Below, piece after piece: positions 41,183-57,247 of a stretch of DNA of 64,000 nt. The notes under the pieces were generated by a model. The model did no database searches and was not told the DNA's origin. It saw only the letters and a list, made by a program, of their open reading frames with translations. Location: positions 221,030 through 285,029 of the forward strand of contig DIUX01000001.1 in the NCBI GenBank assembly GCA_002423185.1. Reading direction: 5' to 3'. Position numbers and translations under genes: made by a program. This stretch comes from Micavibrio sp. UBA6147 (GTDB lineage Bacteria; Pseudomonadota; Alphaproteobacteria; Micavibrionales; UBA1664). The first letter of the stretch is position 1. The number at the start of each line of letters is the position of its first letter.

Positions 41183-42052
41183 ATGACCCGCAAATCGGGA
41201 ACGCATTTTTCCGACCTTATGCCCGCCGCGCAAGGATCATCCCTCGCGCTGCCTGACCCATCATGGATAAAGGCGACGGATGAACAAACCACAAACCCCG
41301 AAGCGCCGCTTCACTCCGCCGCTGACACTGCCGCTGCCAAAGCCACCGCCGCCCAAAACGGCGGACAAGCCGATGACAAGCCGCACCATCTCGGCCATCG
41401 TGACCGCCTGCGCACACGCTTTGTGGAGGGCGGGGGTGAGGCGCTGGCCGATTATGAACTGATTGAGATGCTGCTCTTCCTCGGCATCCCGCGCAAGGAC
41501 ACCAAGCCCCTCGCCAAAGACCTCATCAAACATTTCAAATCATACGAAGCGGTTTTGGCAACCGATTATGACGATCTTGCGGCGTTTAAAGGCATGACGA
41601 AAAACGCCGCCGTGGCGCTCAAACTCGTTCAAGCCTCGGCGCACCGTATGTTGCGGGCATCGGTGATGGGCGAGCCGGTGTTGAACAGTTGGGCGCGGTT
41701 GATGGATTACTTGCGCGCAACGATGGCGCAGGAGAAAAGAGAACATTTCAGGATTTTATTCCTTGATCGCAAAAACAACCTGATCGCCGATGAAGTCCAG
41801 CAATCGGGAACGGTCGATCAAACCCCTGTATACCCGCGTGAAATTGTTAAACGCGCGATACAGCTCAACGCCACCGCGCTGATCCTCGTTCATAACCATC
41901 CCAGCGGCGACCCCAGCCCGAGCCGTGCCGACATCGACATGACAAGACAAGTCGTCGAAGCCGCTAAAACCCTCGATATCGTCGTCCACGACCATATCAT
42001 CGTGTCGCGCAAGGGTTTAACGAGCCTTAAAAACGAAGGGCTGATGGGGTAG
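41183..42052 (+). CDS. radC: RadC-family JAMM/MPN+ protein with an extended N-terminal region
   Basis: C-terminal ALILVHNHPSGDPSPSRADIDMT (JAMM motif) and an upstream HhH-like LADYELIEMLLFLGIPRKDTKPLAKDLI. The start is set at MTRKSGT, after the map stop. Confidence 0.88.
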   Translation: MTRKSGTHFSDLMPAAQGSSLALPDPSWIKATDEQTTNPEAPLHSAADTAAAKATAAQNGGQADDKPHHLGHRDRLRTRFVEGGGEALADYELIEMLLFLGIPRKDTKPLAKDLIKHFKSYEAVLATDYDDLAAFKGMTKNAAVALKLVQASAHRMLRASVMGEPVLNSWARLMDYLRATMAQEKREHFRILFLDRKNNLIADEVQQSGTVDQTPVYPREIVKRAIQLNATALILVHNHPSGDPSPSRADIDMTRQVVEAAKTLDIVVHDHIIVSRKGLTSLKNEGLMG

Positions 42053-42151
42053 GCATAGGGGCGCGGCGTTCGGCGTCAATCTGCCCGCCGCGAAGCCATC
42101 TATATCGAATAGTTTTGCTTTCTCTTTCAATCCTCTGCATAATGACGCCAA

Positions 42152-42421
42152 GCCGTAGGCATTACGGCTCGGGGCTTCACAACCTCATCAATATCATGCG
42201 GCCCGCACCGGTCGTTATCTGTGCGCTTGTTTTCCTTACAAGAGCACCGTTTGGTGCCGCACTCGGCTTACGGCCGGGAGCGACGGTTATGTCCAAAGCT
42301 CCGGCTTAAAAGCCGTCGGCTGTTTTCATGGTATTACAGTTGTGAACTCCCGGTCACCAGAGCTTCATTGCTTCTGGTGACTTTTGGCACATGTTGTTGA
42401 CAAAAGCGGAGGACGTAAGCT
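42152..42421 (+). promoter_or_regulatory. Conserved 5' leader, copy A (upstream of FG-GAP paralogue 1)
   Basis: It aligns block by block with 45707-45989 and 54152-54325. Examples: TCGGGGCTTCACAACCTCATCA and GACGGTTATGTCCAAAGCTCCGGCTTAAAAGCCGTCGGCTGTTTTCATGG. The frame 42159-42380 encodes ...DGYVQSSGLKAVGCFHGITVVNSRSPELHCFW* but has no ATG/GTG/TTG start in this copy. Confidence 0.5.
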
Positions 42422-45382
42422 ATGAATACGCCTATAAACTGCTGTAAAACTTGCGTTATTACTTCTTTTAATTTTTTCATCTATAATCGTATTTATTCAC
42501 AGTTCACGCACGGAGCAAAAGAACTGCAAGTCGTTGTATGCTGGGTATTTCTTGCTTGTGTGTTGTGGGCGTGGGCGATTAGCCCCGCAAACGCGTCGTG
42601 CCCCGTGTCCGTCGCCGGTCAATATATCATGACTTATAATAACGGCACCAAATTTATGGCGGCGTGTAAATTCGGCGATTCTTTGCGCAATTTATGCGGC
42701 GTGACCGGAGCGGCCTGCACCGCGGGTCAAGAAGGCGACGTAGAGTATAACACGGCTGGCAACGTCCTGCGTTATTGCAACGCCAGCAACTGGATCAACG
42801 TCCAATGTGAATCGCTTGGCTCCTGCGCTGGTACAACGGCGGGCACGATTTCCGCCGATGCGACACAGATGAAATACTGCAACGGCACGACATGGCAAGC
42901 CATGTATAATGACGGGATATGCACCGGCATCGGCGTGCAAGAAGCCCTGTTTACCCCCAATGCCAGCACCGAAGGCGAAGACACGGTGCATTTCGGCGCG
43001 AGCCAAGGCATCACAATGACCGATGACTATATGGTGATTGGTGCTCACCGCGCGACACGTAATTCCATTCTTGATGGCGCGGCAACGGTCTATAAACGTT
43101 CCGGCGCGACATGGACGCGGCTCAAGGAGCTCGTCCCCAGCCCGATTGACACATTTGACTATTTTGGTCAAAGAGTGTCAATGGACGGCGATTACGTGAT
43201 TGTCGGCGCGGGCGGGCGCAGCACGGTTTATTTCTTTAAAAAGGACAGCGGCGGTGCCGATAACTGGGGGCAAATCGCGGTGCGCAGCGGCAATAGCTGG
43301 CACGGCGAAGCCGTTGATCTTGAGGGAGATCAAGCCATCGCCGGTGGCTATGCTCATAACGCGACCGTGGTTGACCAAGGACGCGCCCGCATTTACCGCA
43401 GGGATAGGGGCGGCGCCGATGCATGGGGTGAGGTCGTCATTCTCGACCACCCCGATGTTGATAAAGTCAATTATGACCGATTTGGTCGGGCTGTGGCGAT
43501 TGCGGCGGATGTTGCCGTCGTCGGCGCCTATGAACGCGATGAATCCGGCGTTGCCAATGCGGGGGCGGTCTATTTATACCGCGAAACGGCGCTCGACACA
43601 TGGTCGTATCACAAGAAACTTCTCAATCCCAACGGCCTAGGTGCAAGCGACCTTTTCGGCTATGCGCTCGATATCAAGGATCTCGACAATAACGGCACGG
43701 CGGACAGGCTGGTCGTCACCGCCTATGGAGATGATACGCAGGTCGGTGACCGCGGCACGATTTATATTTATGAACGCGACGAAGGCGGCGCCAATAATTG
43801 GGGACTCGTGGCACAAACATCGGATGCCACCGTGTCACCAACGTCGCGGCATGTCGGGTTTGATGTGACACTGGCGGGGGATTACATCATCTCTGGCTCA
43901 CGCCTCAATGACGAAAATGGCGTGGACGCAGGGGCTGGAATGATATTCCGCAAGGATGAAGGCGGTGCGAATAACTGGGGGCTGCAAACCTATGTCTGGG
44001 GTGGGGACACTGACACGCTCGACGAGCTTGGGCGCGGGGTTGCCGCATCCGAAACCGGAAACTACGCCGCCTTTGGTGCGATTTTTCGCCAGAATGCGGG
44101 CGCGCAGCCGGGCGCGGTTTATGCCTTCAGTCGTTCCGGTGCGACATGGACGCAACAACAAAAACTCACGCCCCCCGGAACCTATCAATACTCGGTGCGG
44201 ATGGGCGACTCCGTCGCGGTGTCCGGCGATTATGCGGCCGTCAGTATGATTTACCAGACCGACCGTTGGACGACTTTCCGCTCTGAACGCACTGGTGCGG
44301 TGAATATTTACCAACGTCAACCAAATGCCACATGGATTTTGGACAAACATCTTGTGCCGACATCGCCGCCGAGTGACATGCAATTCGGCGCGACATTGGA
44401 TGTTTCGCCCGAATATATGGTGGTCGGTGTTCCGCTGGACAACGGCCCGACCCGATCGGGCGGCGCGATTATCTTCGGGCGTAACGTCGGCGGCGCGGGC
44501 AATTGGGGCGAAATCAAAAAAATCAAACCATCCGACGCTGAATCTGAAGACAGGGCGGGGGAGTTTAATGGCCTTAGCTTGTTTGGCGATTACATCGTCC
44601 TCGGTGCATTTCGCGAAGACCGCGACCTCGTTTTTCCACAAATAGATGCCGGTGCGGCCTATATTTTCCACCGTAACCAAGGGGGCGCGGATAATTGGGG
44701 CGAGATTAAAAAAATTGTTTCAAGCGTCACCGAGAATAGCGCAAATTTCGGCAATGCCGTCGATATGGGCGGCACGACCTTGGCGGTGGGCGCACGGCTT
44801 GAGGACGCCAATGGCGGCAACTCCGGCGCGGTGTACCTGTTCGAACGCGACCAAGGCGGCTTGGATAATTGGGGGCAGGTCAAGCGTCTTGTCGGGGAAT
44901 CGGCGAATGATCAATATGGCTATGAAGTCGCGGTGTCTGGTGACACATTAGCGATTGGGGCGCCCTATGACGATGATGCCGGCACAAATACTGGTACGGT
45001 CTATATTTACTACCGTAATAATGGCGGTGCCAATAACTGGGGGCTGGAGAAAAAGCAGATCTACAGTGGCGCTGGCGCGGGCGATGCCGCCTTCGGCCAG
45101 TCCATTGACCTGTCGGGCGATATTTTGATTGTCGGCGCGCCGCTCGACGATACCAACCAGACAGATGGCGGCTATACCTATGTCTATTCCCGCAACGAAG
45201 GGGGCAACGACAATTGGGGCTTGCTCGCAACGATTGACCCCAATGTACCGGGGGAGGGCGATTATTTCGGGTTCAGTGTTGCCGTTTCCGGCAACGTGGT
45301 CGCCAGCAGCGGCCTATACAACGATGATTTCGGCGTTGATGACGGCTCGGTCTACCTTTTCGGCTGCCCTCCTGTACCATAG
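42422..45382 (+). CDS. Secreted Cys-rich-module + FG-GAP(FG-GAP_3-type) beta-propeller repeat protein, paralogue 1
   Basis: Signal peptide ending ANA|SCP. The ~150-aa module has 9 Cys (SCPVSVAGQYIMTYNNGTKFMAACKFGDSLRNLCG...RYCNASNWINVQC...KYCNGTTWQAMYNDGICTG). About 13 repeats follow of the form FG.SV...GDY...GA...D.GA.Y.F.R..GG..NWG, one with a DLDNNGTADRLVV Ca-loop-like motif. It ends GSVYLFGCPPVP. Confidence 0.9.
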   Translation: MNTPINCCKTCVITSFNFFIYNRIYSQFTHGAKELQVVVCWVFLACVLWAWAISPANASCPVSVAGQYIMTYNNGTKFMAACKFGDSLRNLCGVTGAACTAGQEGDVEYNTAGNVLRYCNASNWINVQCESLGSCAGTTAGTISADATQMKYCNGTTWQAMYNDGICTGIGVQEALFTPNASTEGEDTVHFGASQGITMTDDYMVIGAHRATRNSILDGAATVYKRSGATWTRLKELVPSPIDTFDYFGQRVSMDGDYVIVGAGGRSTVYFFKKDSGGADNWGQIAVRSGNSWHGEAVDLEGDQAIAGGYAHNATVVDQGRARIYRRDRGGADAWGEVVILDHPDVDKVNYDRFGRAVAIAADVAVVGAYERDESGVANAGAVYLYRETALDTWSYHKKLLNPNGLGASDLFGYALDIKDLDNNGTADRLVVTAYGDDTQVGDRGTIYIYERDEGGANNWGLVAQTSDATVSPTSRHVGFDVTLAGDYIISGSRLNDENGVDAGAGMIFRKDEGGANNWGLQTYVWGGDTDTLDELGRGVAASETGNYAAFGAIFRQNAGAQPGAVYAFSRSGATWTQQQKLTPPGTYQYSVRMGDSVAVSGDYAAVSMIYQTDRWTTFRSERTGAVNIYQRQPNATWILDKHLVPTSPPSDMQFGATLDVSPEYMVVGVPLDNGPTRSGGAIIFGRNVGGAGNWGEIKKIKPSDAESEDRAGEFNGLSLFGDYIVLGAFREDRDLVFPQIDAGAAYIFHRNQGGADNWGEIKKIVSSVTENSANFGNAVDMGGTTLAVGARLEDANGGNSGAVYLFERDQGGLDNWGQVKRLVGESANDQYGYEVAVSGDTLAIGAPYDDDAGTNTGTVYIYYRNNGGANNWGLEKKQIYSGAGAGDAAFGQSIDLSGDILIVGAPLDDTNQTDGGYTYVYSRNEGGNDNWGLLATIDPNVPGEGDYFGFSVAVSGNVVASSGLYNDDFGVDDGSVYLFGCPPVP

Positions 45383-45626
45383 GGAGGGGGACAGGCGAGG
45401 TGTATTCGGGTAATCAGCGGGATGAAGGACTGTATAGGCTCTTCTTAGCATTCGAGCGCTTTGCTTCGCGGCGTCTATTTTTTTCTCTAAAAAGTTGATT
45501 AATGATTTAGATCAGACACAGTCACTAATGGTTACTGTATCGCGCCCTGCAAAACTATATTTTTTCTAAAAAGATAAGCTGCCTTAGACGGTTTTTTATA
45601 AAAACACTATTTATTACAGTCGCTTA

Positions 45627-45651
45627 CAGATATGCAAAAAATGCATATCTG
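45627..45651. repeat. Perfect 10-bp inverted repeat in the AT-rich spacer upstream of leader B
   Basis: CAGATATGCA-aaaaa-TGCATATCTG. Confidence 0.7.
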
Positions 45652-45706
45652 CATCCTATGTGGGTGTGTTTACATTCTTTTGCAATCAAAAGTATACTTA
45701 AGAAAG

Positions 45707-45989
45707 GCTGTATCCTACGCAGTATGGCATACAGCTCTGGGTTTCACAACCTTATCATACCATAATATGCAGTCTGCACTGGTTGTATGATGCGCGCCTG
45801 TTTTATATGGACGCGCAAAATGGTTCTGCGTTTCGGTTTCTGGCCGAGTGACGGTTATGTTCAAAGCTCCGGTTTAAAGGCTGTCGAGTGTTTTCATGAC
45901 GGCGCAGTTGTGATTCCTAAATCGCCGGAAAGCCCCGCTGCTTCTGGGAACCCTAACGCATATCTTAAACAAAACGGAGAAAGTAAACA
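45707..45989 (+). promoter_or_regulatory. Conserved 5' leader, copy B (upstream of FG-GAP paralogue 2)
   Basis: Homologous to copies A and C. The hairpin GCTGTAT...ATACAGC corresponds to GCCGTA...TACGGC in copy A (compensatory changes). A GGAGA Shine-Dalgarno sequence lies 10 nt before the GTG of the main gene. Confidence 0.5.
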
Positions 45990-45993
45990 GTGA
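45787..45993 (+). CDS. Candidate small upstream ORF (68 aa) coupled to paralogue 2 by GTGA stop/start overlap
   Basis: MMRACFIWTRKMVLRFGFWPSDGYVQSSGLKAVECFHDGAVVIPKSPESPAASGNPNAYLKQNGESKQ. Against copy A, the DGYVQSSGLKAV and SPE blocks differ only at third codon positions, and one Arg/Lys codon is changed at all three positions (cgg vs aaa). The TGA at 45991-45993 overlaps the GTG at 45990. Confidence 0.45.
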   Translation: MMRACFIWTRKMVLRFGFWPSDGYVQSSGLKAVECFHDGAVVIPKSPESPAASGNPNAYLKQNGESKQ

Positions 45994-48053
45994 ACGTGTC
46001 CAATAAGAAAGCCCAAGAGTTGAGTATGACTATCATTTGCAACAATGTTTATTCTCGATCAAACAAGGGGGCTACAAAACAAAAGACGTTCCAAGGGTTC
46101 ACATCCATTGCTTTTTTCGCCTGCGTGTTTGTACTCATCATGATGGATACTGCAAGCGCGTCATGCCCAGTCTCTACCGCCGGACAATACATCCTGACCT
46201 ATAATAACGGCACGAAATTTATGGCCGCCTGTAAATATGGTGATTCCTTGCGCAATTTATGCGGCGTAACGGACGCGGCTTGCGCGGCAGGAGAAGAAGG
46301 TGACTTGGAATATAATACGGCGGGGAGTGTGCTGCGCTATTGCAACGGCACGAACTGGGTCAACGTGCAATGCGAAACGCTCACGTCCTGTGCCGGTACG
46401 ACGGCGGGCATGATTTCCGCCGATACGGAACGGATGAAGTACTGTAACGGTGCGACGTGGCAAGCCATGTATAATGACGGCATATGCGCCGGAATCGGTG
46501 TACAAGAGGCGATCTTAACCCCGAGCAACGCCACGGACGGCGATGACGCGCTTTATTTTACCTATATGAGCGGCCTTGCGATGACGGATGATTTCATGAT
46601 GGCGGGGGCGATTTATGCCGCACGTAACAAAACGCGCGATGGTGCAGTGACTGTGTATAAGCGCAGCGGCACAACATGGAACCGTGTCAAGGAACTTGTC
46701 CCCAGTGGTAGCGCAGCAAATCACTATTTCGGCGCCTCCATCGCTATGGACGGCGATTACGCAATCGTCGGAGCCTTTGGCGGAAGCCGTGTTCATTTCT
46801 TCAAAAAAGATCAAGGTGGCGCGGAAAATTGGGGCGAGCTGGTGATGCGCGCGGGGTCAGGCTACTCCGGTCTGTCTGTTGACCTTGATGGCGACAAGGC
46901 TATCGCGGGGGCGTATGGCGCCGATGGTGCAGCAGCGAATCAAGGCAATGCCCGTATTTACAGGCGCGATAAGGACGGCGCTGACGCTTGGGGGCAGGTT
47001 GTTATTCTCAATCACCCTGGTACGCCGCCGATCGCTAATGACAATATTGGGCGTTCCGCAGCGATATCGGGTGATATCGCTGCCGTTGGGAGCCATGTCG
47101 CGGATGAGCCGGGTTTCGTGGATACCGGTGTGGTCTGGCTCTACCAAGAAACATCTCAAGATAACTGGGCGTTGATCAAGAAACTCGTAAACCCCAACGG
47201 GGCGTCTGCGAGCAATTACTTCGGCTCTTCCGTGGACGTGAAGGATCTGGATGGTGACGGCACGGCTGATCGAGTTGTAATCGGAGCCTATGGTGACGAC
47301 ACCTATGGCAGCAATAAAGGCTCTTTGTTTGTGTATGAGCGCAATCAAGGCGGCGCCGATAATTGGGGGCAAATCAAGAAAGTCGTGCCAACGGTTGAGG
47401 AACACGGAGCCTATTTCGGCAGGTCTGTTGACCTTTCGGGGACAACGCTCGTGGCCGGCGCGGCGCGTGAAGATTCCAATGGTAACGATTCCGGTGCCGT
47501 ATATGTTTTCGAACGTGACCAAGGCGGCAGTGAGAATTGGGGGCAAGTCAAACGTATGACGGGCGAGAATGCCGGAGATCTTTACGGCTTCGAAGTTGCC
47601 ATTTCGGGGGATACGATGGTCATAGGGGCGCCTTATGAAGATACCGGCGGAACCAATCGCGGGGCTGTCTATGTCTATTACCGCGACAATGGTGGTGCGG
47701 GTAATTGGGGGCTGGAAAAGAAAATACCCTATGGTGGAGCCGGAGGTGCAGGAGATGCCTTTTTTGGCTGGGCGCTTGATTTATCGGGCGATATCTTGAT
47801 TGTCGGCGCACCGAATGACGACACCAATGCGAATAACAGCGGTTATACCTATGTCTATTCCCGCAACGAAGGCGGCAACGATAATTGGGGGCTTTTGGCG
47901 ACGATTGACCCGAATGTTCCGGGTGAGGGGGATTATTTCGGATACAGCGTTGCAGTGTCGGGAAATGTCGTTGCCGCAGGCGGCATTTATAATGATGATG
48001 CGGGCGTTGATGACGGTGCGGTATACGTGTTCGGCTGCCCGTCTGTGCCATAG
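45990..48053 (+). CDS. Secreted Cys-rich-module + FG-GAP beta-propeller repeat protein, paralogue 2 (short form, ~8 repeats)
   Basis: Same N-module (ASA|SCPVSTAGQYILTYNNGTKFMAACKYGDSLRNLCG...) and the same C-terminus (GAVYVFGCPSVP), but 687 aa. Relative to paralogue 3 it lacks about five central repeats. The GTG start is supported by homology of its Shine-Dalgarno context with copy A. Confidence 0.88.
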   Translation: MNVSNKKAQELSMTIICNNVYSRSNKGATKQKTFQGFTSIAFFACVFVLIMMDTASASCPVSTAGQYILTYNNGTKFMAACKYGDSLRNLCGVTDAACAAGEEGDLEYNTAGSVLRYCNGTNWVNVQCETLTSCAGTTAGMISADTERMKYCNGATWQAMYNDGICAGIGVQEAILTPSNATDGDDALYFTYMSGLAMTDDFMMAGAIYAARNKTRDGAVTVYKRSGTTWNRVKELVPSGSAANHYFGASIAMDGDYAIVGAFGGSRVHFFKKDQGGAENWGELVMRAGSGYSGLSVDLDGDKAIAGAYGADGAAANQGNARIYRRDKDGADAWGQVVILNHPGTPPIANDNIGRSAAISGDIAAVGSHVADEPGFVDTGVVWLYQETSQDNWALIKKLVNPNGASASNYFGSSVDVKDLDGDGTADRVVIGAYGDDTYGSNKGSLFVYERNQGGADNWGQIKKVVPTVEEHGAYFGRSVDLSGTTLVAGAAREDSNGNDSGAVYVFERDQGGSENWGQVKRMTGENAGDLYGFEVAISGDTMVIGAPYEDTGGTNRGAVYVYYRDNGGAGNWGLEKKIPYGGAGGAGDAFFGWALDLSGDILIVGAPNDDTNANNSGYTYVYSRNEGGNDNWGLLATIDPNVPGEGDYFGYSVAVSGNVVAAGGIYNDDAGVDDGAVYVFGCPSVP

Positions 48054-48164
48054 AGGGGGCGAATAAGGCGAATAAAGTGCACAACAAAAATAGGGTTGTT
48101 ATTGCTTTTTTAGGATTCGTGCTTCAAACTGAGGGAACAGGTTATCACTAATCAAAGATGTTTC

Positions 48165-51017
48165 ATGAGGATAAGCGGAAAAATTTTCGCTGCTGTGGCT
48201 GTTGTCTTTTGTGCGCTTGTGCCGCTTCGCGCGGTGCAGGCAACTTGCCCTGTGTCCGTCGCCGGACAATATATCATGACCTATAATAACGGCACGAAAT
48301 TCATGGCAGCGTGCAAGTTTGGTGACTCGCTGCGTAATTTATGCGGCGACCCTGCGGGGGTGTGTACAGCCGGCCAAGAAGGGGATGTCGAATATAATAC
48401 AGGGGGCAGTGTCCTGCGTTATTGTAACGGCAGTAACTGGGTCAATGTTCAATGCCAATCGCTTGGTTCTTGCGTCGGAACGGCGGCGGGAACAATCTCC
48501 GCCGATGCCACACAAATGAAATACTGCAACGGCACAACATGGCAAGCCATGTATAATGACGGCATTTGTACGGGGATCGGGGTGCAAGAAGCCACATTTT
48601 CTCCGTCAAACGCAACGGATGGAGAGGACGCTGTCCAATTCACCCACCCTAACGGTCTTGCCATGACGGATGCGTACATGATGGCGGGGTCGATGCTTGG
48701 TTCGCGTAACCGTCTGCGTGACGGGGCTGTAACGGTCTATAAACGCAGCGGCACAACATGGACACGGCTCAAGGAACTTGTTCCCACAGGCAACGGTGTT
48801 GCCCATTATTTCGGCAATGCTGTCGCCATGGATGGCGATTATGCGATTGTCGGCGCCTATGGCGGAAGCCGCGTCCATTTTTTCAAAAAAGATCATGGAG
48901 GAGCCGATAACTGGGGCGAATTGGTAATGCGCGGCGGATCGACATATTCCGGCATTGCTGTCGATCTGGATGGGGATCAGGCTATTGCAGGCGCGCACGG
49001 CGCGGACGGCGCGGCGACGAACCAAGGCAATGCCCGTATTTATAGGCGGGACAGCGGCGGCGCCGATGCATGGGGGCAAGTTGTTATCCTCACGCACCCT
49101 GGCACGCCGGTCATCAGCGATAACCTTGGTAACTCGGTGGCGATTGCCGCCGACATGGCCGCAATAGGCGGGCCGAATGTGGATGATTCCGGCGTTGCGA
49201 ATACGGGGGTCATCTGGCTGTACCAAGAAACATCGCTTGATAACTGGGTGATGTTGAAGAAATTTACCAACCCGAATGGCTTGGGGTCGAGTGATTATTT
49301 CGGGTCGAGTGTTGATCTGAAAGACCTTGATAATGACGGCACGGCGGATCGCATGGTGATCGGCGCGTACGCAGATGATGAAGGCGGCAGCAATAAAGGC
49401 ACAGTGTTTGTGTATGAACGCAATCAAGGCGGCGCCAATAATTGGGGCTTGGTCAAGCAAATCGATGATACGGCTTCACCGGCTACCTCACAGTATTTGG
49501 GGTTTAGCACCGTCCTTGGGGGGGATCGTGTTATCTCGGGCATTATTTTGGACGATACGCAAGGCAGCAATGCCGGTGCTTCCGTCGTTTTCGGCAAAGA
49601 TGTGGGCGGTGCCAATAACTGGGGTGTTGAACAATTCCTGTATGGCAGTCTTTCAAGCGCCAACGACCAACAAGGCAGAGTCGTCGCAATGGACGAATCC
49701 GGCACTTACGCCACAATGGGGTCAATGTACGAAGGGGAAAGAGGGGCGGCCTATACATACAGCCGTTCAGGCAGCACATGGACTCAGCGCCAGCGCACGC
49801 AACCCCATTCAGGCATTGAGCATTCGGTCAGGATGGGGGATGCCGTCGCGGCCTCGGGCGATTATGCCGCCACAGGCATTATTTATAAAACCGATTACTG
49901 GGTGGCGAATAAATGGACAGTCGTCGGCGGAGTCGATATTTACAAGCGCGCGCCGGACGCAACATGGTCGCTCGATAAGCACGTTTTGCCGCCGTCCCCC
50001 GCAAACTCGATGCAGTTTGGGCAGACGCTAGATATTTCGCCGGAATATTTGGTTGTCGGCGTGCCGGGCGATGATACGGGCGGCGGCGATTCCGGCGGCG
50101 CAATGCTCTTTGGCCGAAACGTCGGCGGAGCAGGAAATTGGGGCTTCAGCAAGCTCATCAAGCACGATTATGCGGCGGGCAGCCAAGACGCCGGAGCGGA
50201 AAACGGGATTGCGTTGTTTGGCGAATATATCGTTCTCGGCGTTGGCGGCGATAACCGAAGCCTCGTCTATCCTCAAGGAAGTGCCGGATCCGTCGCCATT
50301 TTTAAAAAGGATCAAGGCGGCGCGGATAACTGGGGGCAAATCAAAAAAGTCGTCCCAACGGTTGAGGAGCATGCCGCCTATTTCGGGCGGTCGGTTGATC
50401 TTGCGGGAACCACGCTGGTTGCTGGAGCCGCACGCGAAAACGCGAATGGTACGGATGCTGGGGCGATTTATATTTATGAACGTGACCAAGGGGGCGCGGA
50501 TAATTGGGGTTTGATCAAGCGTATGACCGGTGAGTCCGCGAGCGATCATTACGGATGGGAAGTCGCAGTGTCGGGCGACACGATGGCGATTGGTGCCCCC
50601 TATGACGATGACGCCGGAACAGACCGCGGCGCGGTGTATATTTATTATCGCGATAATGGCGGTTCGGGCAATTGGGGTCTGGAAAAGAAGATGGTCTATG
50701 ACGGGGCAAGCAGCGGCAATGCTCTGTTTGGTCGGGCGCTGGACTTGTCGGGCGATATTTTGATCATTGGCGCGCCCTATGACGACACCAATGTGACGGA
50801 TGGCGGCTATACCTATGTCTATTCCCGCAACGAAGGCGGCAACGATAACTGGGGACTTTTGGCGACGATTGACCCGAATGTTCCGGGGGTAGAGGACTTG
50901 TTTGGCTTCAGTGTCGCCGTGTCGGGAAATGTCGTTGCCGCAGGCGGAATCTATAACGACGATGCGGGCGTTGATGATGGCGCTATTTATGTGTTCGGCT
51001 GTCCGCCTGTGCCGTAA
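48165..51017 (+). CDS. Secreted Cys-rich-module + FG-GAP beta-propeller repeat protein, paralogue 3
   Basis: Signal peptide MRISGKIFAAVAVVFCALVPLRAVQA|TCP; 9-Cys module; 13 recognisable repeats; no Cys in the repeat region; ends GAIYVFGCPPVP. Confidence 0.9.
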   Translation: MRISGKIFAAVAVVFCALVPLRAVQATCPVSVAGQYIMTYNNGTKFMAACKFGDSLRNLCGDPAGVCTAGQEGDVEYNTGGSVLRYCNGSNWVNVQCQSLGSCVGTAAGTISADATQMKYCNGTTWQAMYNDGICTGIGVQEATFSPSNATDGEDAVQFTHPNGLAMTDAYMMAGSMLGSRNRLRDGAVTVYKRSGTTWTRLKELVPTGNGVAHYFGNAVAMDGDYAIVGAYGGSRVHFFKKDHGGADNWGELVMRGGSTYSGIAVDLDGDQAIAGAHGADGAATNQGNARIYRRDSGGADAWGQVVILTHPGTPVISDNLGNSVAIAADMAAIGGPNVDDSGVANTGVIWLYQETSLDNWVMLKKFTNPNGLGSSDYFGSSVDLKDLDNDGTADRMVIGAYADDEGGSNKGTVFVYERNQGGANNWGLVKQIDDTASPATSQYLGFSTVLGGDRVISGIILDDTQGSNAGASVVFGKDVGGANNWGVEQFLYGSLSSANDQQGRVVAMDESGTYATMGSMYEGERGAAYTYSRSGSTWTQRQRTQPHSGIEHSVRMGDAVAASGDYAATGIIYKTDYWVANKWTVVGGVDIYKRAPDATWSLDKHVLPPSPANSMQFGQTLDISPEYLVVGVPGDDTGGGDSGGAMLFGRNVGGAGNWGFSKLIKHDYAAGSQDAGAENGIALFGEYIVLGVGGDNRSLVYPQGSAGSVAIFKKDQGGADNWGQIKKVVPTVEEHAAYFGRSVDLAGTTLVAGAARENANGTDAGAIYIYERDQGGADNWGLIKRMTGESASDHYGWEVAVSGDTMAIGAPYDDDAGTDRGAVYIYYRDNGGSGNWGLEKKMVYDGASSGNALFGRALDLSGDILIIGAPYDDTNVTDGGYTYVYSRNEGGNDNWGLLATIDPNVPGVEDLFGFSVAVSGNVVAAGGIYNDDAGVDDGAIYVFGCPPVP

Positions 51018-51125
51018 TATTGTGAGCCGTTCGGCATCGCATCGTTATTGTTTTCTTAAAATAAATACGTCACAATAAAGGGGAGCATCTCTAACCACAG
51101 GGATGCCGTTTTTTATTCGGACAAA

Positions 51126-53999
51126 ATGAAGAAAATAGCTTGTCTGTTTTGGGCGCTCCTTGTTGTAATCCTGCCGTTTGAGGCGCGGGCAAGTTGTCCT
51201 GTGGCGGAGGCCGGACAATACATCATGACGTATAACAGCGGCACGAAATATATGTCGGCCTGTAAATTCGGCGATTCCTTGCGTAATTTATGCGGCAATG
51301 TCGGCGTGTCCTGCACGGCGGGGCAAGAAGGCGACGTTGAATACAGCGCCGCCGGAACGGTTTTGCGCTATTGCAACGGGAGTAACTGGATCAACGTCCA
51401 GTGCGAGGCGCTCGGATCCTGTGTCGGCACGGCGGCGGGGACGATTTCCGCCGACACGACGCAAATGAAATACTGCAACGGCACGACATGGCAAGCCATG
51501 TATAATGACGGAATATGCGTCGGTATCGGGGTGCAAGAAGCGGTCTTCACACCCACTGGCGCATCGCACGGTCAAAACACCATGTATTACGGGTGGGAAG
51601 ACCAAATCGCGATGACCGATGACTATGCCGCGGTCGGCTCGCAATTCGCCACGCGGGTCAGGCTTCGTGACGGCGCGGTGACGATGTATAAACGCACCGG
51701 CGCGGCATGGGCACGAATCAAGGAGCTTGTCCCCAGTGTGTATGGTGTGACTCATTATTTCGGCAATTCCGTGTCGATGGATGGCGATTACATTATGGTC
51801 GGGGCGTATAGCGCCAACCGCGCCTTCATTTTCAAAAAAGACCAAGGCGGCGCCGATAACTGGGGTGAGATTGCCGTGCGGTCGGGCAGTCAATATCACG
51901 GTTTCTCCGTCGATATCGAAGGTGACAAAGCCATAGCCGGAAGCCCCTATCACGGTACCGCAAGCTCGGGCTCTGGCTACCGCCAAGGCCGCGCCCGAAT
52001 TTATCGCAAGGATCGAAGCGGTGTCGATGCATGGGGCGAGGTTGTTATTTTGGAAAATCCTGAGGTTGCGCCGGTTGCGTCGGATCGTTTCGGTGACACG
52101 GTCGCCATCGCGGGCGATATTGCTGTGGTCGCCAGCCCCTATCAGAACGAGGGCGGTATCGGCGACGCTGGTGCGGTCTGGCTATACCGTGAAACGGCCT
52201 TGGACACATGGTCTTTGCTCAAGAAAATCACCAACCCCAACGGGCTGGGGTCGAGTGACCTTTTCGGCTATGCCGTCGACATCAAGGATAACGACGGCAA
52301 CGGCACCGCCGACCGTTTGGTTGTGTCGGCGCTGAGCGACGACGATTTCGGGAGCAATAAAGGTACGATCTTCGTTTTCGAGCGCGACCAAGGCGGCGCG
52401 AATAATTGGGGCTTGGTCACGCATACGGGTGACCGCACAAACGCAAATCCAACCACGGTGGAGATCGGCCGTGGTCTTAGCTTGACGACCAATAATAAAA
52501 TGATTGTTGGTGTCCGCGCCAATGACGACCAAGGCGTTGATGCCGGCGCGGCGATCATCTTCGGCAAGGATACGGGCGGCGCCAATAACTGGGGGATCGA
52601 AGAATATATCTATGCTGGTGACCCTGCGGTGCGCAATGAATTCGGGCGCGCCGTGGCGTTTTCGGAAACAGGCGCCTATGCCATGGCGTCCGCCCCGTTT
52701 GACATTACGAACGACCCCGTGGCCGGTGCCGCCTATATCTTCAGCCGTTCCGGCACGACCTCAACACAGCGCGCCAAACTTGCCCCCACATCCTCCATCG
52801 AATATTCGGTACGGATGGGCGACTCCGTGGCGGTGTCGGGCGACTATGCCGCTGTCGGCATCATCTATAAAACTGATTTGTGGAACACATTGCGCACCCG
52901 CGCCACAGGCGGTGTAAACATTTATAAACGCGCCGCGAATGCAACGTGGTCATTGGAAAAACACATCACGCCTGAAACCCCCTATGGGGACGGGCATTTC
53001 GGAATTACGGTTGACATCTCGCCCGAATTTTTGGCCGTCGCCGTGCCGGGGGATAACGCGGGTGCCAGCGATTCCGGCGCCATCATGCTCTACAGCCGCA
53101 ACCACGGCGGCGTCGGCAATTGGGGCGAGTTTAAAAAGCTCAAAGCCCTCGACCGACAAGCAAGCGATGTTATGGGCTCTGAAAATGGCCTCAGCCTGTT
53201 TGGTGACTACATTGTCGCAGGGGCGCTTGGCGATGACGGAACACTTGTTTCGCCGCAGGGTAACTCAGGATCTGCCTATATTTTCAACCGCAATCAAGGC
53301 GGTGCGGATAATTGGGGACAGGTCAAAAAGCTCATTCCGCCTGTTGACGAACATGAGGCTCGCTTCGGCAACGCCGTTGATATGGGGGGCAACATCATCG
53401 CCGTTGCCTCTCGGATTGAGGATGCAAACGGCGTAAACTCGGGCGCAGTCTATTTGTTTTCAAAGGATCAAGGCGGCACGAATAACTGGGGGCAAATCAA
53501 GAAATTTGTCGGTGAGGCCGCCAACGACCATTTCGGCTATGACGTGGCGGTGTCGGGCGACACGGTCGCGGTCGGCGCTCCGTATCAAGACGCTGCCGGA
53601 ACGGATCGTGGCGCCGTTTATCTCTATTACAAAGACCAAGGCGGCGCGGGCAATTGGGGCTTGTTCAAAAAACTCAATTACCCAGGGGTCAGCTCAGGCA
53701 ACGCCTTGTTCGGGTTCCAGATCGACCTCGCGGGCGATATTTTGATTGTCGGCGCGCCGTATGACGACACAAACTTGACCGATGCGGGCTATGTGTACGT
53801 GTTTTCGCGCAACGAGGGCGGTAACGATAATTGGGGGCAACTCGCCACCATCGTGCCGAACACCCCAGGCGAAACGGACTATTTCGGCTACAGCGTGTCC
53901 GTGTCCGGTAACGTCGTCGCAGGGGGCGGCTTGTATAACGATGATGGCGGCAAGGATGACGGGTCGGTGTATTTGTTCGGTTGTCCGCCGACGCCTTAG
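51126..53999 (+). CDS. Secreted Cys-rich-module + FG-GAP beta-propeller repeat protein, paralogue 4
   Basis: Signal peptide MKKIACLFWALLVVILPFEARA|SCP, with the same module and repeats. It ends GSVYLFGCPPTP. Confidence 0.9.
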   Translation: MKKIACLFWALLVVILPFEARASCPVAEAGQYIMTYNSGTKYMSACKFGDSLRNLCGNVGVSCTAGQEGDVEYSAAGTVLRYCNGSNWINVQCEALGSCVGTAAGTISADTTQMKYCNGTTWQAMYNDGICVGIGVQEAVFTPTGASHGQNTMYYGWEDQIAMTDDYAAVGSQFATRVRLRDGAVTMYKRTGAAWARIKELVPSVYGVTHYFGNSVSMDGDYIMVGAYSANRAFIFKKDQGGADNWGEIAVRSGSQYHGFSVDIEGDKAIAGSPYHGTASSGSGYRQGRARIYRKDRSGVDAWGEVVILENPEVAPVASDRFGDTVAIAGDIAVVASPYQNEGGIGDAGAVWLYRETALDTWSLLKKITNPNGLGSSDLFGYAVDIKDNDGNGTADRLVVSALSDDDFGSNKGTIFVFERDQGGANNWGLVTHTGDRTNANPTTVEIGRGLSLTTNNKMIVGVRANDDQGVDAGAAIIFGKDTGGANNWGIEEYIYAGDPAVRNEFGRAVAFSETGAYAMASAPFDITNDPVAGAAYIFSRSGTTSTQRAKLAPTSSIEYSVRMGDSVAVSGDYAAVGIIYKTDLWNTLRTRATGGVNIYKRAANATWSLEKHITPETPYGDGHFGITVDISPEFLAVAVPGDNAGASDSGAIMLYSRNHGGVGNWGEFKKLKALDRQASDVMGSENGLSLFGDYIVAGALGDDGTLVSPQGNSGSAYIFNRNQGGADNWGQVKKLIPPVDEHEARFGNAVDMGGNIIAVASRIEDANGVNSGAVYLFSKDQGGTNNWGQIKKFVGEAANDHFGYDVAVSGDTVAVGAPYQDAAGTDRGAVYLYYKDQGGAGNWGLFKKLNYPGVSSGNALFGFQIDLAGDILIVGAPYDDTNLTDAGYVYVFSRNEGGNDNWGQLATIVPNTPGETDYFGYSVSVSGNVVAGGGLYNDDGGKDDGSVYLFGCPPTP

Positions 54000-54151
54000 C
54001 GGGCACTATGAGATTTGTTTTTTGTGTAACACGTTTAGTATAGATTGGGTTGAGCTTGATTGTTTCGTTTAGTATTTTTGTTTTATAAAAAACAACCTTG
54101 CCGTTCTTCCACTATTCTTCTACTGTCTGTGATGGATCGTGGGGTGTCTGC

Positions 54152-54325
54152 GGTCTGGGGACTAAGAAACCCCGATAGAATGCAGCTTGTGCAACTGTTT
54201 TGCACTCCTCGGCGTATGGTCGGGGAGGCTATGGCGTATGTACAGCCTTTGGTAAAGGCCATAGCGACCCTTCATTCTATGGGTTTTCTTACTCCCCGAT
54301 CACCTAAAGGTCAGGGGACAGCACA
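54152..54325 (+). promoter_or_regulatory. Conserved 5' leader, copy C (upstream of FG-GAP paralogue 5)
   Basis: This is the more diverged copy. ATGCAGCTTGTGCAACTG corresponds to ATGCGGCCCGCACCGG, and CTATGGCGTATGTACAGCCTTTGGTAAAGGCCATAG corresponds to GACGGTTATGTCCAAAGCTCCGGCTTAAAAGCCGTC. Confidence 0.45.
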
Positions 54326-54329
54326 ATGA
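54216..54329 (+). CDS. Candidate small upstream ORF (33-38 aa) coupled to paralogue 5 by ATGA stop/start overlap
   Basis: MVGEAMAYVQPLVKAIATLHSMGFLTPRSPKGQGTAQ is in the same frame as, and shares the motif of, the copy A/B peptides (YVQ...KA(V/I)..(F/L)H.......(R/K)SP(E/K)). GGGGAGG lies just upstream of the second ATG (54231). The TGA at 54327-54329 overlaps the ATG at 54326. Confidence 0.4.
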   Translation: MVGEAMAYVQPLVKAIATLHSMGFLTPRSPKGQGTAQ

Positions 54330-57247
54330 AGATCTTCCAATCATCAGGTTTCAAAATACCGTTTTTCCTTCGTGTTCAACGTCGTTTTTCTGCTTTGCTT
54401 TGGGGGTTTGTTTTTGTGACTGTCCTGCTCGCGAGCCTGCCTCATGCGGCGTGGGCAAGCTGTCCTGTGTCCGTCGCGGGTCAATATATCATGACCTATA
54501 ACAACGGCACGAAATTCATGGCGGCGTGTAAATTCGGGGATTCCTTGCGCAATTTATGCGGCAATGTCGGCGTGTCCTGCACGGTGGGGCAAGAGGGCGA
54601 TGTTGAATACAACACGGCTGGTAACGTCCTTCGCTATTGTAACGGGAGCAACTGGGTCAATGTTCAGTGCGAGGCTCTGACGTCCTGTGTCGGCACGCCG
54701 GCGGGAACGATCTCCGCTGACGCCACGCAAATGAAATACTGCAACGGCACGACATGGCAAGCCATGTACAGTGACGGCATTTGCACGGGGATCGGGGTTC
54801 AAGAAGCCTTGTTCACCCCCACCGCGGGCACTCACGGTCAAAACGCAATGCAATATGCGATGGAACAACAAGTCGCCATCACCGACACCTATGCGATTGT
54901 CGGTGCGTCACAGGCCACGCGTAACGTGCTTATCGACGGGGCGGCGACCATCTATAAACGATCCGGCACAACATGGTCACGGATCAAGGAACTGGAGCCG
55001 AGCGTCACGGGAGTCTCCCATTATTTCGGTCAAGCTGTGGCGATTGACGGCGATTACGCCATGGTCGGTGCCTATAACAACAACCGAGTTTTTATATTCA
55101 AAAAAGACCAAGGCGGTGCCGATAATTGGGGACAAATCGCCACCCGTACCGGCGCGACCTATCACGGCGTGTCTGTCGACATCAACGGTGACAAGGCCAT
55201 CGGCGGCAGTCACGGTTACAGCGGCGCGGCGGTACGGCAAGGGCAGGCGAGAATATACCGCAAGGATCGAAGCGGAGCCGATGCGTGGGGCGAGGTCGTC
55301 ATCCTCAACCATCCCGAACCCGACCCCGTGAACTACGACTATTTCGGTCGTACCGTGGCTATTGCGGGGGATATTGCGGTGGTTGCGGGCGGATACCGGA
55401 CGGAAGCGGGAATTAGCAATGCAGGCGTTGTCTGGGTTTACCGCGAAACATCGGCGGATAATTGGTCTTTGCTGAAAAAAATCACCAACCCCAACGGCTT
55501 GGGTGCGAATGATTATTTCGGTTACAGCGTCGATGTACAGGATAACGACTCCAACGGCACAGGCGACCGGATTGCTGTCGGCGCTTTTGGAGATGATAAT
55601 TTCGGTGGCGATAAAGGCACGATATTTATTTTCGAGCGTGACCAAGGCGGTGCGAATAACTGGGGGCTGGTGACACAGACTGCCGACACAACGATTTCCG
55701 TATCATCCTTTCATCAAGGCCGCGAAATCGCGCTGGCGAACGACCGTTTGATATCAGGTACGCGTTTGAACGACGATCAAGGCACGGATGCCGGAGCGGC
55801 AATCATTTTCGGCAAAGATAATGGCGGCGCCAATAATTGGGGCGTCGAACAATATGTATACGCCTCCGACGGATCGGATCGCGATGAACTTGGTCGCTCT
55901 GTCGGCCTGTCGAAAACGGGAACCTATGCCATTGCCGGCGCACCCTATGCGGTGAACAGTGCCACCAATGTCGGTGCGGCCTATATCTATGCTCGCTCCG
56001 GCACAACATGGACTCAGCAATCCAAACAAACCCCGCATTCCTCCGTTGAATATTCGGTGCGGATGGGGGATTCCGTCGTGGTGTCGGGGGACTATGCGGC
56101 GGTCGGCATGGCCTTGAAGACAGATTTTTGGAACAGCAACCGAATCTATCGCACCGGCGGCGTGAACATATACCAGCGCCAACCCAATTCCACTTGGATC
56201 TTGGAAAAACACGTCGTGCCGACAGCGCCGGTCAACGACATGCAATTCGGTCAGACGCTTGCTATCTCGCCCGAAATATTGGTTGTGGCAACACCAGGGG
56301 ATAACAGCAGCGCGGGCAATTCCGGGGCAGCGCTTTTGCATGGGCGTAATGAAGGCGGCGCGGGGAATTGGGGGCTGATTAAAAAAGTCAAACACGGCGA
56401 CCCGCAAGGTAACGACTATGCCGGAAATGAAAACGGCTTGGCTTTATTCGGTGATTATCTGGTGCTTGGTGTGTCGCGCAAAAATTTGAATCTGGTTGTT
56501 CCGCAAGGCTCTGCGGGCGCGGCCTATATCTTCAAACGCAATCAAGGCGGCGCCGATAATTGGGGACAAATCAAAAAACTTGTCGCTCCGGTCGAAGAAA
56601 ACGGCGCCTATTTCGGTAACGCCGTGAGTATGGGCGGCACAACCCTCGCGGTCGGGGCGCGGATCGAGGATTCCAACGGCACGAACTCAGGTTCAGTTTA
56701 TCTCTATTCCCGCGACCAAGGCGGCGTGGATAATTGGGGGCAAATCAAAAAACTTACGGGTGAGAACGTCGGTGACCAATTCGGCTATGACGTTGCCGTG
56801 TCGGGCAGTACGATGGCGATCGGCGCACCCTATGACGATGATGCCGGCACCGACACAGGCACGGTTTACATTCACTACGAAAACCAAGGCGGCGCGGGCA
56901 ATTGGGGACAATTTAAGAAGATCGTCTATAACGGCGGCGGCGTGGGCAACGCCTTGTTCGGCTTTAACATTGACTTGTCGGGCGATATTTTGATTGTCGG
57001 TGCGCCCTATGATGACCGCAACGTCGAAAACGGCGGCTATGTCTACGTCTATTCCCGCAACGAAGGCGGCGATGATAACTGGGGCTTGCTCGCCACCATC
57101 GACCCCGATGTACCGGGGCTAGGCGACTTGTTCGGGTGGAGCGTGGCGGTGTCGGGCAACGTGGTTGCGGGGGCTGGGCTTTACAATGACGACTACGGCA
57201 AGGATGACGGATCGGTGTATTTGTTCGGCTGTCCACCAACGCCGTAA
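54326..57247 (+). CDS. Secreted Cys-rich-module + FG-GAP beta-propeller repeat protein, paralogue 5
   Basis: Signal peptide ending AWA|SCP. The N-module is almost identical to that of paralogue 6. It ends GSVYLFGCPPTP. Confidence 0.9.
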   Translation: MKIFQSSGFKIPFFLRVQRRFSALLWGFVFVTVLLASLPHAAWASCPVSVAGQYIMTYNNGTKFMAACKFGDSLRNLCGNVGVSCTVGQEGDVEYNTAGNVLRYCNGSNWVNVQCEALTSCVGTPAGTISADATQMKYCNGTTWQAMYSDGICTGIGVQEALFTPTAGTHGQNAMQYAMEQQVAITDTYAIVGASQATRNVLIDGAATIYKRSGTTWSRIKELEPSVTGVSHYFGQAVAIDGDYAMVGAYNNNRVFIFKKDQGGADNWGQIATRTGATYHGVSVDINGDKAIGGSHGYSGAAVRQGQARIYRKDRSGADAWGEVVILNHPEPDPVNYDYFGRTVAIAGDIAVVAGGYRTEAGISNAGVVWVYRETSADNWSLLKKITNPNGLGANDYFGYSVDVQDNDSNGTGDRIAVGAFGDDNFGGDKGTIFIFERDQGGANNWGLVTQTADTTISVSSFHQGREIALANDRLISGTRLNDDQGTDAGAAIIFGKDNGGANNWGVEQYVYASDGSDRDELGRSVGLSKTGTYAIAGAPYAVNSATNVGAAYIYARSGTTWTQQSKQTPHSSVEYSVRMGDSVVVSGDYAAVGMALKTDFWNSNRIYRTGGVNIYQRQPNSTWILEKHVVPTAPVNDMQFGQTLAISPEILVVATPGDNSSAGNSGAALLHGRNEGGAGNWGLIKKVKHGDPQGNDYAGNENGLALFGDYLVLGVSRKNLNLVVPQGSAGAAYIFKRNQGGADNWGQIKKLVAPVEENGAYFGNAVSMGGTTLAVGARIEDSNGTNSGSVYLYSRDQGGVDNWGQIKKLTGENVGDQFGYDVAVSGSTMAIGAPYDDDAGTDTGTVYIHYENQGGAGNWGQFKKIVYNGGGVGNALFGFNIDLSGDILIVGAPYDDRNVENGGYVYVYSRNEGGDDNWGLLATIDPDVPGLGDLFGWSVAVSGNVVAGAGLYNDDYGKDDGSVYLFGCPPTP

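Follow-up and report, generated by a model that had tools for sequence, protein, structure and literature searches.

In a 64-kb window (the whole stretch of 64,000 nt analysed here, i.e., positions 221,030 to 285,029 of contig DIUX01000001.1 of Micavibrio sp. UBA6147), six paralogous FG-GAP genes follow each other on the forward strand, and three of them are preceded by long leaders. This locus raises the question of what these leaders encode. A preliminary description had proposed a small open reading frame (ORF) conserved in frame and overlapping the main start codon, with a structured cis-regulatory RNA as fallback. Here, we find that the conserved core of the leaders is a three-way-junction RNA family and not a peptide. 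The leaders are probably 5' untranslated regions of the FG-GAP units that carry a two-state, cis-acting ON/OFF RNA. Respective coordinates are collected in Table 1.

Leaders A, B and C

The six FG-GAP proteins are all secreted, carry signal peptides, are 63-65% identical to each other and align in a conserved Cys-rich N-terminal module. The gaps 5' of paralogues 1-6 measure 369, 607, 111, 108, 326 and 64 nt, such that the long leaders A, B and C stand before paralogues 1, 2 and 5, respectively. By blastn, leaders A and B agree in 71% of 178 nt (E=1e-16), and in the core their identity reaches 83%. Leader C shows no blastn similarity to either of them. As MAFFT misaligned A with C, we bootstrapped from a covariance model of A and B alone. 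This model detects C at 54211-54314 with 35.7 bits (E=6.6e-7) and has no other match in the window. The three long leaders are thus homologous, as the preliminary description had stated. It had also noted that the short gaps (64-111 nt before paralogues 3, 4 and 6) lack the element; these indeed match neither the A+B model nor the family model R2 introduced below. An arrangement in three transcription units of 1, 3 and 2 genes is plausible. Since the leaders A and B are 71-83% identical while the fourfold-degenerate sites of genes 1 and 2 agree in only 36%, the leaders are under selection and not neutrally retained.

Leaders A and C each fold alone into the same three-way junction, and their P2 and P3 helices differ on both strands, i.e., by compensatory changes. 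The fold of leader C has a z-score of -3.13, with 0/200 shuffles as stable, whereas that of leader B is no more stable than shuffles (z=+0.29). In leader B, the 3' arm of the closing helix P1 is broken (CUCCCGGUC to UUCCUAAAUC), the CACC tail reads CGCC, and hairpin P4 has shrunk to CCGGAA (45925-45930) and UUCUGG (45942-45947) without a U run. Even at E<=10, leader B has no match in Rfam. As B scores only 29.3 bits with R2 despite its 83% identity to A, and has lost the P1 3' arm and CACC, we regard it as a decaying copy; gene and leader may be decaying together in the case of paralogue 2.

A family of related elements in other genomes

When compared by blastn with ten loci that encode FG-GAP homologues, the leaders find no match. 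Only the covariance model recovers one of these loci (L008, from another genome), where the element (44 bits) lies 327 nt 5' of an orthologous FG-GAP gene whose protein is 45% identical. There, the element is followed by a textbook intrinsic terminator, then by a gene for a 91-aa protein with signal peptide and then by the FG-GAP gene. Six other contexts of FG-GAP homologues (L001, L003-L006, L009) are without the element according to the covariance models, and a protein search with the N-terminal domain in species-representative genomes yields no relatives.

A sequence pattern of bases common to A, C and L008, namely GGYCGGG, 9-12 nt, TATGTNCA, 45-75 nt and CCGRYCACC, was scanned over one genome per species. 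It matches at least 119 genome stretches, compared to a rough chance expectation of fewer than 20. The model R2 was rebuilt from 66 of these matches and contains no sequence of the window; it confirms 114/119 stretches among the matches listed. Within the window, R2 scores leader A with 90 bits (E=4e-18) and leader C with 73.9 bits (E=2e-14); L008 obtains 80 bits. The matches listed are almost all from Alphaproteobacteria (Rickettsia, Rhizobium, Phyllobacterium, sphingomonads, Micavibrio, Maricaulaceae and gut lineages), with two from Verrucomicrobia. Confirmed copies are also found on ten prophage-like (viral) contigs and two plasmids; as a plasmid query, the Rhizobium copy returns four matches only. 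Since all members were gathered via one sequence pattern, diversity and copy number are underestimated. In all, genes of well over a hundred species of Alphaproteobacteria (Rickettsia, Rhizobium, sphingomonads and gut lineages among them) are preceded by this folded RNA of more than 200 nt, which also occurs on plasmids and prophage-like contigs; current Rfam models annotate none of these copies.

Two side observations concern the FG-GAP loci of other genomes. The 91-aa gene of L008 (9724-9998) ends 2 nt before the FG-GAP start and has no counterpart in the window. Three homologues without RNA leader (L003 10001-12826, L005 5784-8675, L009 6609-9503; 59-65% identity) reside on conjugative or integrative elements next to ArdC, DUF2958, resolvase, TraG/VirD4 coupling protein and MobA relaxase genes, and are flanked by an Lcl_C-domain gene and a prepilin-like gene.

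Structure and covariation

The full element covers about 210-230 nt. From 5' to 3', it consists of the hairpins H1, H2 and H3 with a pseudoknot, a strand 'a', the three-way junction, an ACC tail that opens hairpin P4, and finally a U run or a ribosome-binding site (RBS). The junction is closed by P1, formed by strands 'b' and 'c'; P2 contains a conserved internal loop (UAUGUCCAG/YAAAG), and P3 is the third arm. The consensus reads CKUAGNAA for the H2 loop, UCCUYGACC for strand a, GGYCGGGGAG for strand b and CUCCCCGRYC for strand c.

For the alignment of 101 sequences, standard pairs are found in 98.6% of the cells and both-sided changes at 19/25 pairs. We count 619 compensatory cells versus 170+-12 in shuffles, and only 23-53% of the cells are paired when the structure is slid by 1-3 columns. 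At single positions of P2, of its tip and of P3, up to six pair types are observed. Frequent G-U pairs are confined to this strand, always the sense strand of the next gene, which speaks for RNA and against DNA as the conserved molecule. Among the unpaired positions, the P2 internal loop, the junction UUNCUAA and the H2 loop are conserved (TATGTNCA being imposed by the search pattern).

The about 110 nt 5' of the junction are conserved in the family as well as in copies A and C, comprising H1 (of variable sequence), H2 (GGGG-CKUAGNAA-CCCC) and H3. The H3 loop covaries with the strand that follows it (GGUGUC/GGCACC, GGCAUC/GAUGCC, GGAUAUA/UAUAUCC), and a strict pseudoknot pattern is present in 64/101 members compared to 240/2020 shuffles (12%). 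Strand a complements the 5' P1 arm, from which YUAU separates it; the arm itself begins with GGU or GGC in nearly all members. The contiguous a:b helix has a mean length of 7.9 bp versus 5.55 in shuffles, reaches at least 8 bp in 61/101 members, and covaries in that GACC accompanies GGUC and GGCC accompanies GGCC. For leader A, the a:b helix is part of the minimum-free-energy (MFE) fold of the full leader. RNAalifold, applied to a plain MAFFT alignment to which no structure had been fitted, predicts H2, H3 and a:b. Evolution has thus preserved three features of the element, namely its junction, its pseudoknot and its a:b pairing.

Downstream of the junction, nearly all members form P4 after the ACC, with a 5' arm (Y)CACC... 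and a 3' arm ...GGUG(R). A U run turns P4 into an intrinsic terminator in 39/101 members, and these terminators share 2-5 nt with P1. Other members have an RBS 3-20 nt after the ACC. Judged from its sequence, leader C is such a translational-type platform without terminator. A tRNA-like 3' end ACCA was considered for the tail and is weakened, given that the ACC forms the 5' base of P4 in nearly all members and that, in the low-G+C group, a U follows it.

Sphingomonad and Rhodospirillales-type members show an additional conserved hairpin (GCGG-GGGCGYA-CCGC), which caps a longer stem between P4 and the RBS, e.g., at about 3990-4020 in L048 and in L036, L043, L066, L079, L035, L064 and L131.

A proposed two-state switch

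Strand b, which mimics a Shine-Dalgarno sequence, can pair with either a or c, though not with both at once, and both pairings are conserved. We therefore read the element as a cis-acting ON/OFF leader. In its OFF state, the local a:b hairpin would form and leave the anti-Shine-Dalgarno-like strand c (CUCCCC) free. For leaders of the terminator type (copy A, L008), the free strand c would complete P4 down to the U run, i.e., to a full terminator; in copy C, it would pair with the RBS (GGGAG/GGGGA). In the ON state, P1 (b:c) and the junction fold would deprive the terminator of its closing pairs beside the U run or release the RBS. Possible triggers are a bound small ligand or protein or, by analogy with phage C4 RNA, a cut made by RNase P at the first GG of P1. 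A bound factor (ligand or protein) is suggested by the invariant unpaired nucleotides of the junction and the H2 loop.

Constrained folds are in line with this model. For copy A, P4 has 11 pairs when a:b is formed and 8 when P1 is formed, and the predicted unpaired probability of the RBS/ATG stretch is 0.45 in the P1 state versus 0.09 in the a:b state. Over 65 members, the energies of the two states are close (mean -62.3 vs. -66.1 kcal/mol); the RBS is more open in the P1 state for 35/65 members and in the a:b state for 13/65.

Several observations weigh against this two-state reading. The accessibility trend is modest, since 17/65 members show no difference, and it stems from nearest-neighbour folding, which takes neither the pseudoknot nor tertiary structure into account. 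With P1 formed, strand a pairs with the RBS in one of the constrained folds of copy C, which would reverse the switch logic and renders the modelling of copy C ambiguous. As P1 and the terminator overlap by only 2-5 nt, the terminator could form in both states, in which case the 39 terminator-type members could be small-RNA genes. Transcription starts, termination and read-through are all features we infer. The downstream genes are extremely heterogeneous, such that the ligand cannot be guessed from them. Furthermore, covariation was counted on a model-fitted alignment, which somewhat inflates the numbers, with a large margin remaining; and the search pattern imposed GGYCGGG, TATGTNCA and CCGRYCACC, such that the conservation of these bases is partly circular.

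With regard to the 5' end, a consensus scan of the 18.6-kb region 41900-60500 has its top promoter-like match upstream of leader B. The corresponding region of leader A aligns with it column for column and is below the threshold of the scan. Since the site ends 8 nt 5' of the H1 of leader B and is aligned with the weaker site of A, the RNA probably starts at H1.

If the element is a true switch, the secreted, surface and mobile-element genes behind it form an unexplored regulon. It would also provide a testable model for the little-understood sRNA-Xcc1 family, i.e., cis control rather than trans-acting virulence regulation.

Comparison with known RNAs

Using curated thresholds, a search with 4227 Rfam families reports only two tRNAs in the window, and the element matches none of the families. 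Permissive settings yield full-length alignments (1-87/87) to sRNA-Xcc1 (RF02221) with 23.9 bits for A, 24.9 for C, 29.6 for L008, 30.9 for L019 and 30.7 for L051; the gathering threshold of 53 bits is not reached by any alphaproteobacterial copy scored (24-31 bits). The similarity to C4 (RF01695) is weaker, with 22.4 bits (L008) and 25.8 bits (L019) being below the gathering threshold of 45, and the C4 model has no match on the window copies. The similarity is reciprocal in that three sRNA-Xcc1-like elements, for which the Rfam consensus sequence served as query, obtain 20-31 bits with R2. Two of these three are annotated directly 5' of a co-oriented gene, and the one from Aeromonas has the 5' flank UAU directly before GG as well as ACC and a CCACC/GGUGG hairpin like the family studied here.

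The operon controlled by the C4 RNA of phages P1/P7 carries the C4 sequence in its own leader, and the same transcript has upstream sequences that are complementary to part of C4. C4 and IsrK resemble the element in their three helices, with P1 closing two hairpins, in the GG(U) start and in the CCACC that follows. They differ in the mode of pairing: the variable loops a' and b' of C4 pair with the RBS of the target, whereas the alternative pairing of the element uses the P1 strands. We find almost no excess complementarity between the variable loops and the RBS region of the same member (P3 loop: 3.74 nt vs. 3.59+-0.09 for mismatched partners; P2 tip: 3.35 vs. 3.13+-0.08), such that C4-style antisense pairing with the own RBS is not supported. 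UUCAU is common to the window copies and faces (A/G)UGAA at the start codon, which amounts to 4-6 nt only.

sRNA-Xcc1 shares with the element a G+C-rich P1 (GGCCGGGG.../...CCCCGGCC), a P2 with asymmetric internal loop and short tip, a P3, a U-rich junction and the CACC tail. It is likewise found directly 5' of and co-oriented with diverse, often mobile-element genes and in tandem copies. On the other hand, its P2 internal loop is AUACAAUA/GAA compared to UAUGUCCAG/YAAAG in the element, the 5' domain of about 110 nt (H1, H2, H3 pseudoknot and anti-P1 strand) is not seen in the three retrieved examples, and the literature treats it as a trans-acting small RNA and not as a leader switch. In Xanthomonas campestris, it was detected by RACE and Northern blot as a discrete, integron-encoded RNA of 88 nt (PMC2996969). 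Reported locations are 5' of symE in integron cassettes (10.1101/2025.06.18.660453) and 5' of symE, ORF6N, BRO family protein and hypothetical genes (10.1101/2025.06.18.660453; 10.1101/2020.03.17.996009), and tandem arrays in a Xylella island adjoin C4 and IsrK matches (PMC12189769).

Given that the scores fall below both gathering thresholds, that the P2 loop differs, that a 5' domain and an anti-P1 strand are added and that loop complementarity is missing, the element is a member of neither family. It appears to be a variant related to the sRNA-Xcc1/C4 kind, which are its nearest relatives. The searched literature contains no description of the alphaproteobacterial element; work outside of it could hold one. 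As a separate observation, the sRNA-Xcc1-like elements of a Desulfovibrio-group plasmid (L142, about 1420-1440) and of Aeromonas (L144, about 1420-1445) have a common, terminator-like stretch about 45 nt 5' of P1, which reads GCCCGTCAG(A/C)CGT(G/A)GTTTTTTTATGCC.

These relatives suggest an alternative to the cis-acting switch, namely a leader-derived small RNA of the C4/IsrK/sRNA-Xcc1 type that acts on its own read-through transcript or on other mRNAs. Such an RNA would be cut by RNase P at the GG of P1 and would end at the ACC or the P4 terminator. Besides the reciprocal model similarity (20-31 bits) and the fact that sRNA-Xcc1 (23.9-30.9 bits) and C4 (22-26 bits) are the only Rfam families with any similarity, this is in accordance with the flank and tail shared by the Aeromonas example, and with the discrete 88-nt sRNA-Xcc1. 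The GGU/GGC start of P1 is compatible with the GGW at the beginning of P1 where RNase P cuts C4 from a longer leader, after which C4 acts through its loops (PMC5320573). A strong terminator directly follows the junction in 39/101 members, and the tandem copies and mobile elements are reminiscent of sRNA-Xcc1 in Xylella and Xanthomonas (PMC12189769; 10.1101/2025.06.18.660453). Nevertheless, we consider a small RNA unlikely. The loops are barely more complementary to the own RBS region than to those of other members, and identical conserved single-stranded parts stand before unrelated genes, unlike the target-specific loops of antisense RNAs. In copy C and many other members without terminator, the start codon follows 13-25 nt after the junction, such that the RNA cannot be a separate gene there. 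Finally, a simple excised RNA leaves both the conserved a:b pairing and the 110-nt 5' domain unexplained.

Riboswitches and attenuators are similar to the element in their complex fold, their invariant unpaired nucleotides and their mutually exclusive helices, and in that the same sensor is joined to either an intrinsic terminator or RBS occlusion. They differ in that the downstream genes of the element are without a common pathway and that its P1 competitor lies 5' of the junction and not in a 3' platform. Regarding the features generic to riboswitches, we find a covarying structured domain and alternative pairings tied to the terminator or RBS, for which the direction of the effect is a prediction only, while the 79 downstream proteins do not share a pathway. 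The fallback of the preliminary description, i.e., a structured cis-regulatory RNA that matches no known riboswitch class, is supported by the family model and the covariation.

It is conceivable, if doubtful, that the element and by extension the whole sRNA-Xcc1/C4 group form an unrecognised class of factor-sensing ON-switches that gate surface-protein and cargo genes. Its users would be alphaproteobacterial chromosomes, conjugative elements, transposons and prophages. The domain of junction and pseudoknot would either serve as binding site for a small molecule or host factor or be cut by RNase P as a tRNA-like substrate, and each of these events would lock P1 and thereby release the terminator or the RBS.

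Genomic context

In most members, an ORF on the same strand begins 13-70 nt after the ACC. Among the 79 downstream proteins, we find DUF5818 (5), XRE HTH (4), porins (2), RovC/DUF2285 (2), resolvase (2) and Mrr (2); the remaining ones belong to single families or are without Pfam match, the latter applying to most. Overall, the products also include lipoproteins, an autotransporter, a GGDEF-EAL protein, pilin-like and small membrane proteins, Mrr-like nucleases, glycosyltransferases and recombinases. A partner protein gene common to the members was sought within +-4 kb and not found. Tandem copies of the element occur in L040 (5071-5173 and 5705-5808, with an identical 96-aa membrane-protein gene after each copy), L060 (3702-3802 and 3830-3932, 28 nt apart) and L061 (2618-2730 and 2921-3028).

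This context includes mobile DNA: about 15/95 loci have an integrase or serine recombinase no more than 4 kb away, tRNA genes are located just upstream in L066 and L021, a Shinella plasmid copy adjoins a Tn3 transposase and resolvase, and 10 matches are in viral contigs. The element could accordingly be a selfish or relic repeat, i.e., a piece of a mobile element that spread with cargo genes and has no regulatory role. This is very improbable given its strict position directly 5' of a gene on the same strand, with the start usually 13-70 nt after the ACC, and given platforms that vary between terminator and RBS as in regulatory leaders. It is kept by compensatory change from Rickettsiales to Sphingomonadales and retained 5' of orthologous FG-GAP genes in two distant genomes, and neither terminal repeats nor target duplications were seen.

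The small open reading frame

The preliminary description favoured a translated leader peptide whose stop overlaps the main start and thereby couples FG-GAP translation. Its observations on the window are correct. The quoted peptides and the A/B differences at third codon positions read as described, i.e., one frame is open in all three copies, and the stops overlap the main starts in B (TGA 45991-45993 in GTGA) and C (54327-54329 in ATGA). The two hairpins it mentioned are real helices of the family, namely H1 (GCCGTA/TACGGC) and P2 (GACGG/CCGTC vs. CTATGGC/GCCATAG). Moreover, L008 has a genuine small gene, i.e., the 91-aa signal-peptide gene, though 3' of the RNA and without overlap.

The conclusion drawn from these observations does not hold for the wider family, where covariation is positive (619 vs. 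170+-12 cells) and the coding frame is not. The frame in question (TAT GTC CAx) is open through the core in 45/100 members, compared to 34 and 23 for the other frames. Core lengths modulo 3 are distributed evenly (30/33/37 across 100 members), so indels do not preserve a frame as had been claimed for the window copies. The apparent constraint on the peptide is that of the RNA: 'YVQ' and 'GLK' result from translating two conserved strings of the RNA, UAUGUCCAG and GGCUUAAAG, and many members have stops exactly where the window copies read 'GLK'. Of the four synonymous A/B differences in DGYVQSSGLKAV, three are transitions that change G-C to G-U or U-A to U-G within P2 and its tip, and the fourth is the variable N of UAUGUNCA. 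Similarly, two of the three changes in SPE keep the 6-bp P4 of copy B paired (A-U to G-U, G-U to A-U).

The individual copies provide the same picture. Copy A has no ATG, GTG or TTG in the quoted frame that gives at least 20 aa, and 41 nt separate the stop of this frame from the main ATG. The frame is best kept in copy B (ATG 45787..45993), yet this is the copy that lost the closing helix and the CACC tail of the RNA (29 bits). A leader peptide is therefore improbable in the extreme. A second mini-ORF, reaching from the AUG in UAUGU to the UAA in UAAAG within P2 and preceded by the Shine-Dalgarno-like GGGGAG, was also rejected, as its frame is kept only where the tip has the modal length (distances modulo 3 at other lengths: 11/28/18).

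ORFs called across the element, here and elsewhere, are likely mis-annotated as genes. An 89-aa mechanical ORF with TTG start (54060-54329) crosses leader C and is one such spurious call. In L008, ORFs of 159 aa (9220-9699) and 149 aa (9549-9998) run through the RNA.

Feature coordinates and further observations

Table 1. Features of the FG-GAP locus (positions within the window)
Feature	Position	Strand	Details and basis
Leader A, 5' domain	42152..42225	+	H1 42152-42168 (GCCGUAGGCAUUACGGC); H2 42171-42186 (GGGG-CUUCACAA-CCUC)
Leader A, H3 and pseudoknot	H3 42198-42215; 42221-42225	+	loop CGCAC pairs with GUGCG 42221-42225; pseudoknot found by looser search
Leader A, anti-P1 strand a (CUCGGCU)	42262..42268	+	7-bp a:b helix with P1 5' arm GGCCGGG, loop UAC
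Leader A, three-way junction	42272..42358	+	R2, MFE fold, family covariation
Junction A, P1	42272-42280 with 42347-42355	+	GGCCGGGAG/CUCCCGGUC
Junction A, P2	42281-42288 with 42311-42318	+	CGACGGUU/AGCCGUCG; conserved internal loop UAUGUCCAA/UAAA, 3-bp tip
Junction A, P3 and tail	P3 42319-42323 with 42336-42340; ACC 42356-42358	+	GCUGU/ACAGU
Leader A, hairpin P4	42353..42385	+	GUCACCAGAGC/GCUUCUGGUGAC, then UUUU; terminator-like; first 3 nt common to P1 3' arm
Leader B, hairpin H1	45706..45736	+	GGCUGUAU...AUACAGCU; aligned to H1 of A, compensatory changes
Leader B, degenerate junction	45835..45947	+	P2 and most of P3 kept
Leader C, 5' domain and anti-P1	54135..54213	+	H1 54135-54155; H2 54157-54173 (GGGG-ACUAAGAAA-CCCC)
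Leader C, H3 and pseudoknot	H3 54182-54198; 54200-54205	+	loop GUGCAA pairs with UUGCAC 54200-54205; pseudoknot search
Leader C, strand a	54205-54213	+	CUCCUCGGC; 9-bp a:b helix
Leader C, three-way junction	54218..54304	+	P1 54218-54227 with 54292-54301 (GGUCGGGGAG/CUCCCCGAUC)
Junction C, P2	54228-54235 with 54258-54265	+	GCUAUGGC/GCCAUAGC
Junction C, P3 and tail	P3 54266-54270 with 54281-54285; ACC 54302-54304	+	GACCC/GGGUU
Six FG-GAP_2 paralogues	42422-45382, 45990-48053, 48165-51017, 51126-53999, 54326-57247, 57312-60209	+	Pfam PF14312, E=1e-71 to 1e-96
RBS and ATG, paralogue 1	42408..42424	+	GGAGGA 42408-42413, ATG 42422; sequence
RBS and ATG, paralogue 5	54313..54328	+	AGGGGA 54313-54318, ATG 54326; 22 nt after junction C
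Promoter-like site, leader B	45669..45698	+	TTTACA, 18 nt, TATACT; 10 of 12, top match in 41900-60500 scan
Promoter-like region, leader A	42114..42143	+	weak -35 at about 42114-42120, -10 CATAAT 42138-42143; putative

Among the FG-GAP proteins, paralogue 2 (45990-48053) starts with GTG and misses a stretch of about 300 residues from the centre of the propeller that its five siblings have. The Cys-rich module C..G.....Y.....L.YCNG.NW, found at 42593-43100 of the window and in the equivalent parts of the other paralogues, is without Pfam family. The same module is present in otherwise unrelated proteins 3' of the RNA element elsewhere (L019 3312-4016, L132 8518-10557). The two tRNA genes of the window, both on the + strand (20159-20240 and 29644-29717; 63 and 70 bits), are unrelated to the leaders.

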